Below, one piece after another: positions 49,358 through 53,323 of a DNA stretch of 64,000 bases. The notes beneath the pieces were generated by a model, which had not been told where the DNA came from, did not search any database, and saw nothing but the letters and a program-made list of their open reading frames with translations. The stretch is taken from contig OZ024746.1 of assembly GCA_964016885.1 (NCBI GenBank), positions 11,036,001-11,100,000 of the forward strand, read 5' to 3'. Both the position numbers and the translations under genes were made by a program. The first letter of the stretch is position 1, and every line of letters starts with the position of its first letter. The stretch comes from Eledone cirrhosa (lineage: Eukaryota).

Positions 49358-50616
49358 ATTTCTAAATGTTAATTATTGTTCAATATCAAGTCGTAACTAT
49401 TTTAGATGGAGTTGCCTCTCTAATTTCAGCGGGGGGTTGGGGGGGGGGCGTCAGCCAGCATAATGTTTTCTTGATAATAGAGCCAAAAACACATGACTAT
49501 CCTGAATTGGGCACTGGGATAATGAAATGTCTCTAAATATCTATATTAAACATTTCAGCCCATTTGAGTATCAATGTATTAGGTACCATCAACTAATAGT
49601 GTTATTTAACGCAAAAGTATGTGTTATTTTCATAAGAAACTGATTTGTTGCAAGCTTCAACAAAAAACATTCAAGTCAGCATAAAACTTCAATTTTTAAA
49701 TCCTTTTAACTAAGCTTTTGCTCAAAAATCCACCATAGCCAAAAGATTCCATAACATATTAACTCTATAGTACGGAATGATGAAAAATTCAAAACTTTTT
49801 TAATTTTGTATTTCTAAAGAGCAAAAATGGAATAATCTCATTACAAGGAGTTATTATATTTCTAAAGGTTACCTGATTTAGCAAGATAAAGTTCAAAAGA
49901 TTATCCTTCAGAAAAGTGCCAGTTCAATCTCTGCTTTAGTGGCTTTGATGTTTTATCGCCTATTCATTTTGGATAATATTTCAAGATATTTTGTGGATTT
50001 CTGTGCAAAAGAAGTGCAAAATTAACATTTAAATTATCCTACAATTCTATAGACAAAATCATTTTAACTGGCATTTGCTTTTTCTCCCTAAAGGTTTTAT
50101 TTAACAGAAAATTTGCAATTAATAATGATAAGAAAAACTTCAAAAAATAATATTTTTCCCGTTCCGGTGCAGTGTGCTCTATGTTGTCGTGGAGATACCC
50201 AGAAAACTTATGGCACTATTTGTTCCAATGTAAAAACTAGCAGCCCGAGAGAGAGAACATCTTGAAGTCAGTCTTTAAAAAAACTACAATGATTAGAGGT
50301 GCAATATATTGTCAAGGGTCTACTAAACATAAAAAATATCTTCCAATACATTTATAGTTACTAAAAAGTTCAACAGTTGCTTTATAACTGTCCCTAGTTT
50401 TCTTTTGTCTCCTTTTTCCATCTCTCTCACTATATATATATATATATATATATATAAATTGGAATAAATGCTCTGAAATAGCGATATATATGTGAATATA
50501 GACATAGAACATTCGAAAATACTCTGTATGTTTATAATAAACATTTTGAAGACCTAATCGCTATAGAATAGAATACGTCACGTATTACAATTAGATTCTC
50601 GATAAAAGCAAGGGAA

Positions 50617-50659
50617 GTAATCTACGCGTTTCATTCTCGTTAGAAATCATCAGGACTAC
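50617..50659 (-). ncRNA. Type I hammerhead ribozyme (6 minus copies starting 50617, 50927, 51237, 51547, 51857, 52167)
   Basis: Reverse complement of 52466-52508. Confidence 0.88.
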
Positions 50660-52465
50660 ATATCCAGTGCTTTTATCGAGAATGACACAGCTAGAGACTT
50701 ATAGAATACCTAGCTGTGTACAGGAACTGGTTTGAAAGAGCGGTTGCCGGTCCGGCAGAAATTAGAAATTGGAATAAATGCTCTGAAATAGCGATATATA
50801 TGTGAATATAGACATAGAACATTCGAAAATACTCTGTATGTTTATAATAAACATTTTGAAGACCTAATCGCTATAGAATAGAATACGTCACGTATTACAA
50901 TTAGATTCTCGATAAAAGCAAGGGAAGTAATCTACGCGTTTCATTCTCGTTAGAAATCATCAGGACTACATATCCAGTGCTTTTATCGAGAATGACACAG
51001 CTAGAGACTTATAGAATACCTAGCTGTGTACAGGAACTGGTTTGAAAGAGCGGTTGCCGGTCCGGCAGAAATTAGAAATTGGAATAAATGCTCTGAAATA
51101 GCGATATATATGTGAATATAGACATAGAACATTCGAAAATACTCTGTATGTTTATAATAAACATTTTGAAGACCTAATCGCTATAGAATAGAATACGTCA
51201 CGTATTACAATTAGATTCTCGATAAAAGCAAGGGAAGTAATCTACGCGTTTCATTCTCGTTAGAAATCATCAGGACTACATATCCAGTGCTTTTATCGAG
51301 AATGACACAGCTAGAGACTTATAGAATACCTAGCTGTGTACAGGAACTGGTTTGAAAGAGCGGTTGCCGGTCCGGCAGAAATTAGAAATTGGAATAAATG
51401 CTCTGAAATAGCGATATATATGTGAATATAGACATAGAACATTCGAAAATACTCTGTATGTTTATAATAAACATTTTGAAGACCTAATCGCTATAGAATA
51501 GAATACGTCACGTATTACAATTAGATTCTCGATAAAAGCAAGGGAAGTAATCTACGCGTTTCATTCTCGTTAGAAATCATCAGGACTACATATCCAGTGC
51601 TTTTATCGAGAATGACACAGCTAGAGACTTATAGAATACCTAGCTGTGTACAGGAACTGGTTTGAAAGAGCGGTTGCCGGTCCGGCAGAAATTAGAAATT
51701 GGAATAAATGCTCTGAAATAGCGATATATATGTGAATATAGACATAGAACATTCGAAAATACTCTGTATGTTTATAATAAACATTTTGAAGACCTAATCG
51801 CTATAGAATAGAATACGTCACGTATTACAATTAGATTCTCGATAAAAGCAAGGGAAGTAATCTACGCGTTTCATTCTCGTTAGAAATCATCAGGACTACA
51901 TATCCAGTGCTTTTATCGAGAATGACACAGCTAGAGACTTATAGAATACCTAGCTGTGTACAGGAACTGGTTTGAAAGAGCGGTTGCCGGTCCGGCAGAA
52001 ATTAGAAATTGGAATAAATGCTCTGAAATAGCGATATATATGTGAATATAGACATAGAACATTCGAAAATACTCTGTATGTTTATAATAAACATTTTGAA
52101 GACCTAATCGCTATAGAATAGAATACGTCACGTATTACAATTAGATTCTCGATAAAAGCAAGGGAAGTAATCTACGCGTTTCATTCTCGTTAGAAATCAT
52201 CAGGACTACATATCCAGTGCTTTTATCGAGAATGACACAGCTAGAGACTTATAGAATACCTAGCTGTGTACAGGAACTGGTTTGAAAGAGCGGTTGCCGG
52301 TCCGGCAGAAATTAGAAATTGGAATAAATGCTCTGAAATAGCGATATATATGTGAATATAGACATAGAACATTCGAAAATACTCTGTATGTTTATAATAA
52401 ACATTACACAGCTAGGTATTCTATAAGTCTCTAGCTGTGTCATTCTCGATAAAAGCACTGGATAT

Positions 52466-52508
52466 GTAGTCCTGATGATTTCTAACGAGAATGAAACGCG
52501 TAGATTAC
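52466..52508 (+). ncRNA. Type I hammerhead ribozyme (3 plus copies starting 52466, 52776, 53086)
   Basis: gtagtc-ctgatga-t ttct aacg agaa t-gaaac gc gta^-gattac. Stem I is extended by 16-bp attctcgataaaagca/tgcttttatcgagaat. Confidence 0.9.
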
Positions 52509-53248
52509 TTCCCTTGCTTTTATCGAGAATCTAATTGTAATACGTGACGTATTCTATTCTATAGCGATTAGGTCTTCAAAATGTTTATTATAAACATACA
52601 GAGTATTTTCGAATGTTCTATGTCTATATTCACATATATATCGCTATTTCAGAGCATTTATTCCAATTTCTAATTTCTGCCGGACCGGCAACCGCTCTTT
52701 CAAACCAGTTCCTGTACACAGCTAGGTATTCTATAAGTCTCTAGCTGTGTCATTCTCGATAAAAGCACTGGATATGTAGTCCTGATGATTTCTAACGAGA
52801 ATGAAACGCGTAGATTACTTCCCTTGCTTTTATCGAGAATCTAATTGTAATACGTGACGTATTCTATTCTATAGCGATTAGGTCTTCAAAATGTTTATTA
52901 TAAACATACAGAGTATTTTCGAATGTTCTATGTCTATATTCACATATATATCGCTATTTCAGAGCATTTATTCCAATTTCTAATTTCTGCCGGACCGGCA
53001 ACCGCTCTTTCAAACCAGTTCCTGTACACAGCTAGGTATTCTATAAGTCTCTAGCTGTGTCATTCTCGATAAAAGCACTGGATATGTAGTCCTGATGATT
53101 TCTAACGAGAATGAAACGCGTAGATTACTTCCCTTGCTTTTATCGAGAATCTAATTGTAATACGTGACGTATTCTATTCTATAGCGATTAGGTCTTCAAA
53201 ATGTTTATTATAAACATACAGAGTATTTTCGAATGTTCTATGTCTATA

Positions 53249-53323
<75 letters not shown>

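Follow-up and report, generated by a model that had tools for sequence, protein, structure and literature searches.

How does a short non-coding repeat come to stand in a microsatellite as a tandem array that reverses its direction part-way along? The window, by which we mean the whole 64-kb stretch of Eledone cirrhosa DNA analysed here, raises this question through nine identical 310-bp units, each with a hammerhead ribozyme (HHR), which lie in two head-to-head blocks, 6.29 units antisense and then 2.74 units sense. The features of the locus are as follows.

50431-50456, no strand: (TA)13, left half of the target microsatellite (TRF)
50456-52405, minus: left arm, 1950 nt, 6.29 units, HHR strand minus; the RNA 3′ end lies at 50456 and the 5′ truncation at 52405
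50456-50492, minus: 37-nt extension past the end point of the right arm (36-38 nt with junction ambiguity), a candidate for the 'tail' of Penelope-like elements (PLEs)
50484-50493, minus: internal (AT)4 tract, where the 3′ junction of the family recurs; the right arm stops at the position equivalent to 50493
50510, 50522 and 50710 (50510-50710), minus: three sense A>G changes relative to the family, in every unit and both arms
50617-50659, minus: first type I HHR core of the six on this strand; CUGAUGA starts at 50653, 50963, 51273, 51583, 51893 and 52203
52388-52404, plus: predicted hairpin capping the left-cDNA 3′ end, 1-nt overhang
52405, no strand: head-to-head junction, one bp common to both arms
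52405-53252, plus: right arm, 848 nt, 2.74 units, HHR strand plus; RNA 3′ end at 53252
52406-52440, minus: predicted hairpin capping the right-cDNA 3′ end, 1-nt overhang
52466-52508, 52776-52818 and 53086-53128, plus: type I HHR cores, predicted cut after 52502, 52812 and 53122
52503-52812, plus: predicted cut-to-cut monomer, 310 nt, 35% GC
53252-53318, no strand: (TA)33, right half of the target microsatellite (TRF: (AT)33.5)

The original prediction, made from the letters alone, had described a 310-bp HHR tandem array with an internal inversion, set in (TA)n. Tandem repeat detection bears this out, with period 310 at 50456-52405 (6.3 copies, 100% matches) and again at 52405-53261 (2.8 copies), as does an exact letter check, in which both arms match one unit with zero mismatches and have a single nucleotide, 52405, in common. 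The nine HHR copies foreseen, six minus and then three plus, were found as nine cores in that order. The 5′ truncations of the two arms meet at 52405, and the outer ends of the array are both 3′ ends of the HHR strand, at unit phases 265 on the left and 228 on the right, a distance of 37 nt. Read in reverse complement, the right arm repeats part of the left one letter for letter, with about 133 nt of spacer between the two. The flanks of the array are mirror images for no more than 4 nt; (TA)n lies on both sides and no large target-site duplication is discernible. Both array ends are indeed partial units, as had been noted, but the idea of random starts and stops does not hold for them, since both are 3′ (priming) ends and one is recurrent.

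A hand-written descriptor of type I HHRs, scanned over the 64-kb window, gave 25 matches, nine of them in the array (9/9 units), against a mean of 0.005 in shuffled sequence (n=200). The core has a stem I of 6 bp, then CUGAUGA, a stem II of 4 bp whose base is a U-U, GAAA, a stem III formed by the palindrome ACGCGU, and a GUA site; the cores of two unrelated families in the window are also 43 nt long. Across the three HHR families of the window, 8 of 12 pairs are changed on both sides, a count reached in 0/500 shuffles, and these double-sided changes back the predicted fold in an indicative way only, as three sequences were compared. Rfam reported no hammerhead match in the window at its gathering score, nor at E<=10, where the only matches were two unrelated chance ones. 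The linear monomer folds at -77.2 kcal/mol (z -4.8), as well as none of 100 shuffles do, and z is -4.5 when the 310 nt are folded as a circle; the unit had been called highly structured, and its 16-bp stem I extension and the hairpins named at the time are all present. The longest stop-free frame on the circle is 59 codons in sense and 46 in antisense, which points to a non-coding unit. Among the common alleles of the family, those at 50646, 50649, 50656 and 50621 leave the HHR fold intact: with A in place of U10.1 the stem II mismatch is closed, N7 is variable, and stem I alternates between wobble and standard pairs. As modelled, the HHR of the array unit looks weak, with its U-U in stem II and one-pair stem III. 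Eight of nine predicted Xenopus retrozymes showed no cleavage in vitro (Li, Clavereau and Pollet 2026, 10.64898/2026.07.22.740005); this and the missing Rfam score weigh against the model favoured below, in which the HHRs would cut.

Judged by its sequence, the unit is almost certainly a non-autonomous non-LTR retrozyme. Its 310 bp and 35% GC lie in the retrozyme range (about 150-450 bp, GC <50%), and metazoan non-LTR retrozymes (Cervera and de la Pena 2020, PMC7229834; Li 2026) are described, as seen here, as tandem 150-450 bp units of low GC with a type I HHR in each, no ORF and a self-paired monomer. The axolotl HHR_Amex2 has the same U-U at the base of stem II (PMC7229834). The element belongs to a known class, and its insertion pattern is one already known for PLEs; the original prediction made neither point, nor did it note that the geometry is found three more times in the window.

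To place the unit in the genome, four sequencing runs were aligned to one unit plus the left flank: X1 and X3, which are one sample; X21, which consists of RAD reads; and X11, another sample with 88 million letters of contigs and of unrecorded type. Summed contig depth was 2-8 x 10^5 on the unit versus 3.5-7 on the unique flank, a contrast that is not a copy number; over 233 nt the unique flank is identical to a contig. Flanks differ at the recurrent junction of the family. The retrozyme family is very abundant and multi-copy in the genome. The unit is also contained in X11, with strand-specific A>G changes, in a run whose type is unrecorded and whose contigs cannot display circles. Among 23 runs listed for the unit none is on record as RNA, and of the 17 rows with a small share X11 alone entered the evidence. 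Exact 20-21 nt HHR patterns had no locus among metagenome contigs and none among viral contigs. Contigs of X1, X3 and X11 have the 3′ part of the unit followed by the same divergent sequence beyond 50507, which is a related family, or possibly the coding PLE.

The ends of the array point to how it was inserted. PLE insertions are characterized by partial tandems, an adjacent inverted 5′-truncated copy and a tail of 30-40 bp on one end, and their (TA)n bias hides target duplications (Craig 2021, PMC8557442). We consider it very probable that the array is a PLE-type insertion. It has the inverted 5′-truncated block joined head-to-head, which is also present in three sibling inserts, and a (TA)n target without discernible duplication. 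Loose ends in which (TA)n and foreign sequence stand before 50484 were found in three of the four runs (5 contigs of X1, 6 contigs of X3, 280 reads of X21). At 50492, copies that stop where the right arm does should show G>A, and this change reaches 7-20%. As copies of the family repeatedly join (TA)n at this one AT tract inside the unit, the right end marks a site that recurs in the family and not a random phase; the suggestion that end phases might be random across genomic copies therefore fails for the right end, whose junction recurs at a fixed AT tract in three of four runs. Read pile-ups at 50589, 50592 and 50763 in X21 were rejected as restriction-digest artefacts, as they lie on AATT sites and have loose ends of low agreement; the RAD enzyme was presumably MluCI-type.

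Three more head-to-head HHR inserts lie between (TA)n tracts in the window.

19103-21709: head-to-head HHR insert with a 164-bp inverted arm and a 2.4-kb AT-rich body; offset 0, the arms ending at the same site
22188-22805: almost perfect palindrome of 519 bp, each arm with an HHR and the centre with 27-bp repeats; the right side is longer by about 97 nt
24999-25525: two HHR arms set head-to-head, again with (TA)n on both sides; offset about 90 nt

The array has a candidate tail of 37 nt, and the siblings have offsets of 0, about 97 and about 90 nt, so that one of four fits 30-40 nt; recurrence was assessed, and seen, at the right end, the left site lying next to a repeat skipped in the alignment and to an AATT cut. 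With arm offsets of this kind in the siblings, the inverted (TA)n geometry is replicated in the window but the tail of 30-40 nt is not. Endonuclease-bearing PLEs (Neptune, Naiad and Poseidon; PMC8557442, PMC11167929) resemble the array in their partial tandems and inverted 5′-truncated copy, in a (TA)n bias without visible duplication, and in a repeat HHR with palindromic stem III; for their tail of 30-40 bp on one end the 37-nt extension is a candidate here. Unlike PLEs, the array has no RT or GIY-YIG ORF and consists of many full rounds of a short unit, not of pLTR-ORF-pLTR. Neptune-like partners would fit better, because Naiads are without canonical HHRs. No RT or GIY-YIG ORF was found by Pfam in 12 read-through frames of 19267-21545 and 45912-47782, and the unit itself is non-coding; Pfam on 13 frames of the window likewise gave no PLE ORF, its sole match being zf-RVT at 48173-48919, below the cut-off. 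That match (E 1.4e-5, minus strand) falls in a 248-codon frame that is likely the end of a LINE.

The window, whose overall repeat and ORF listings are dominated by microsatellite, holds further elements. A second retrozyme-like array, at 1-4151 on the minus strand, has a 489-bp unit in at least 8.5 copies, ends at (TA)n and carries nine HHRs of type I that follow the 43-nt plan described above, with U-U at the base of stem II and an ACUAGU stem III; when 8 units were compared, 2 differed by a single base. An insert at 56717-57236 between (TA)n tracts has a single HHR (56961-57003, plus) and a 33-bp direct repeat at its ends, and by eye a stretch upstream of its HHR is common to it and the 489-bp unit. 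Two islands in a long (TA)n field, 5745-6115 and 9647-10017 (minus), are 99.7% identical and carry a hammerhead-like CUGAAGA...GAAA motif that the descriptor left unscored. The insert at 19103-21709 has a partial internal repeat, a palindrome at 21343-21548 and no Pfam match in six frames. A SINE (25099-25249) sits in the left arm of the insert at 24999-25525 with a direct repeat of about 20 bp on its sides. At 53780-55651 a 23-bp minisatellite of 81 copies has grown from the 3′ end of a SINE, of which the window has about ten more copies; this dispersed SINE and the load of (TA)n look octopus-like. The stretches 25655-26830 and 27036-28170 are near-identical with an N gap between them, possibly a haplotype overlap in the assembly.

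The junction at 52405 is where the two arms must have met. The claim that two hairpin ends join there with a 1-nt overlap was confirmed: each cDNA 3′ end at the junction is predicted to fold to a terminal hairpin, and the unpaired T and A are the shared pair. A terminal hairpin would arise at 15 of 310 cut points, by a criterion set after the junction was seen. Of the two origins proposed for the switch, template switching or the joining of two cDNAs, the latter is the better reading. The 52405 junction is absent among the joints listed for X1, X3, X11 and X21, and this neither confirms nor refutes it, because contigs drop rare forms and 191 further loose ends fall outside the listing. Other opposite-strand joints of the unit exist, at 50495/50728 in X21 (98 reads, one start), and one X3 contig has a sense-strand loose end behind 50564. 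L1 twin priming also leaves an inverted 5′ block, whose outer end is the second priming site, and short microhomology at the inversion. The inverted block and the short microhomology are likenesses to the array, which differs in having neither a poly(A) tail nor a duplication, in priming sites only 37 nt apart and in a template that would be tandem or circular.

The three A>G changes set the array apart from its family. At these sites, X21 reads without the family letter number 7/3621, 18/3579 and 4/2817, near error level. None of the three lies in CpG, and CpG decay was rejected as their source. Each shared G faces C in the predicted fold, which was computed with the Gs and in which the long-range pair of 50522 is less sure; the family would therefore have A-C mismatches at these sites. 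A-C is the most efficiently edited mismatch (review PMC10944622), and octopus ranks with the animals that show the most editing (Porath 2017). In X11, among the 32 variant rows listed, 8 sites stand at >=5% and at least 3 times the X21 level, and seven of the eight are A>G in sense, with levels of 20-36%. At the three shared sites the share of X11 without the family letter is 4%, 10% and 24%, from crude contig depths, and X11 is without subfamily alleles that reach 19-28% in X21. All ten A>G sites are paired in the predicted fold (P 0.006) and have U or A upstream, never G or C (P 0.012), in line with the upstream G depletion of ADAR. X11, of unrecorded type and from another sample without matched DNA, behaves like RNA, and its strand-specific A>G changes are as ADAR editing would give.

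The array, in turn, carries none of the seven sites hot in X11, and these seven stand at 2-6% in DNA versus 0.1-0.5% for the three sites that it does carry. As the array lacks the hot sites and these are commoner in DNA, it is not what a typical edited molecule would show. The AACG loop allele of the array is absent from X11, and together these observations indicate that the three Gs may be older changes of a rare source lineage. Whether the three shared Gs are fixed edits is, in our judgement, evenly balanced.

From what can be read off the DNA directly (the unit, its geometry, the identity of the units, one recurrent end and the shared changes) we infer a course of transcription, cleavage, circularisation, editing, two-strand PLE priming, rolling-circle copying and a 1-bp join. 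A tandem transcript would be cut by its HHRs, possibly as dimers through the ACGCGU palindrome, and a cut monomer would be ligated to a 310-nt circle and edited by ADAR. A PLE RT/GIY-YIG protein acting in trans would nick both strands of the (TA)n tract, one cDNA would be primed at the AT tract inside the unit, the other 37 nt downstream of it, and the two would run 2.7 and 6.3 times round the same circular template; their hairpin-capped 3′ ends would join through one A-T pair, followed by fill-in. A PLE protein is reported to cut and extend both strands of AT-rich DNA and to start at two sites within the RNA, the tail being the distance between them (Frangieh 2024, PMC11167929). The right start site of the array would have AT microhomology with the target, a difference from Anolis, whose start site is not homologous to the cut DNA. 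That both target strands were primed is likely, and that the template was one circular RNA is moderately probable. The model as a whole, that is, PLE-type two-strand priming of two cDNAs on one ADAR-edited circle joined by 1 bp, falls just on the probable side. That the array is a genomic record of one ADAR-edited circle, copied for some nine rounds by two PLE RTs primed from opposite (TA)n strands, is a tentative reading, to which we give clearly less than even weight.

The nature of the template carries the main disagreement. Nine identical units argue for one template molecule, because a linear multimer whose units were edited independently would seldom yield units that are all alike: at X11 levels, and with independence, a unit escapes all seven edits with P 0.096, and eight further units do so with P 7e-9. 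The array fits the rolling-circle copying of a circular RNA that had been proposed for it, in so far as a circle copied repeatedly would give these units, and the circle itself is still inferred. A linear transcript of a source array that already had the three Gs, copied before cleavage and with PLE two-strand insertion otherwise as above, would explain the shared changes equally well. This alternative is in keeping with the apparent weakness of the HHR (its U-U in stem II and one-pair stem III) and with the Anolis PLE in vitro, for which the principal substrate was uncleaved RNA and insertion still took place with HHR mutants (PMC11167929). Against it, independent editing at 20-36% makes unit identity improbable to the degree just given, on the assumption that X11 is RNA and that germline levels are alike; nascent RNA may be unedited. 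Because the Anolis PLE uses uncleaved RNA, a linear source transcript retains a real share of probability, and we regard it as unlikely.

Three further explanations are weaker than the linear template. A single priming followed by snap-back, with the left cDNA (6.29 rounds) folding at 52271, copying itself for 848 nt and resolving on (TA)n at the AT tract, would account for a right arm that reverse-complements part of the left without a mismatch, across a spacer of about 133 nt; the AT tract would supply microhomology, and the sibling insert at 22188-22805 is an almost spacer-free palindrome. Yet the switch pairs just 1 nt, the end at the AT tract is the commonest (TA)n junction among those listed and so acts as a primary start site, and the PLE protein extends both strands in vitro (PMC11167929). 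The reverse order is impossible because 2.74 units cannot template 6.29, and snap-back is altogether improbable. Later expansion and inversion in DNA of a monomer or short insert, by unequal crossover, replication slippage or break repair, has a precedent in the local amplification of PLE termini to tandems proposed by Li et al. 2026, and any recent expansion yields identical units; it is a very improbable account nonetheless, as it leaves unexplained both outer RNA 3′ ends, one at the recurrent junction of the family, and the fact that 64 kb contain four HHR inserts of head-to-head form, each set between (TA)n tracts. Least probable is that the inversion is an artefact of assembly or of a fold-back read, for which it may be said that no independent read was seen across 52405 and that the window is very rich in microsatellites. 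The lack of mirroring past 4 nt in the flanks, the unequal lengths of the arms and their ends at different phases speak against this, as do the other opposite-strand joints (50495/50728 in X21, 50564 in X3). The assembly also retains single-base differences in 2/8 units of the neighbouring 489-bp array, and polishing is thus an unlikely source of the identity of the nine 310-bp units.

The two-strand, one-circle model can be set beside what has been proposed before. Circular monomers giving tandem cDNA, with PLEs as the likely helper, were proposed by Cervera and de la Pena 2020 (PMC7229834), and Li et al. 2026 (10.64898/2026.07.22.740005) tie retrozymes to PLE pseudo-LTRs by distribution and homology and call the mechanism open; how PLEs form tandem and inverted insertions is likewise called undefined (Craig 2021, PMC8557442). 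Unlike what is seen here, the available text of the retrozyme papers (PMC7229834; Li 2026) is without head-to-head arms, fixed 3′ ends, (TA)n targeting or array-wide edits. In the available text of Cervera 2020 (PMC7229834), 'invert' occurs only within 'invertebrate' and 'microsatellite' has 0 matches, and editing is raised merely as a possible cause of heterogeneity; in that of a review in Cells 2020 (PMC7761336), 'editing' has 0 matches. In the literature covered, which was listings, abstracts and mostly open-access main text, we found no inverted, (TA)n-targeted retrozyme arrays and no array-wide fixed edits.

The route by which retrozymes integrate, with a circle as template and a PLE as helper, is still a hypothesis in the literature. 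Our array places PLE hallmarks on a retrozyme, and so makes the circle-template and PLE-helper hypotheses testable. An edit pattern common to all units of a young array and differing between arrays would indicate a one-circle template, and units that differ at edited sites would indicate a linear one; the family is abundant enough for such a comparison of units on existing long reads. If the array is indeed the record of an edited circle, edit marks would barcode single template molecules across thousands of young arrays, and would provide in vivo proof of rolling-circle reverse transcription in animals, together with a mechanism by which PLE insertions come to be tandem and inverted. Somatic-type edits that close A-C mismatches would, in that case, become heritable and reshape the ribozyme RNA.
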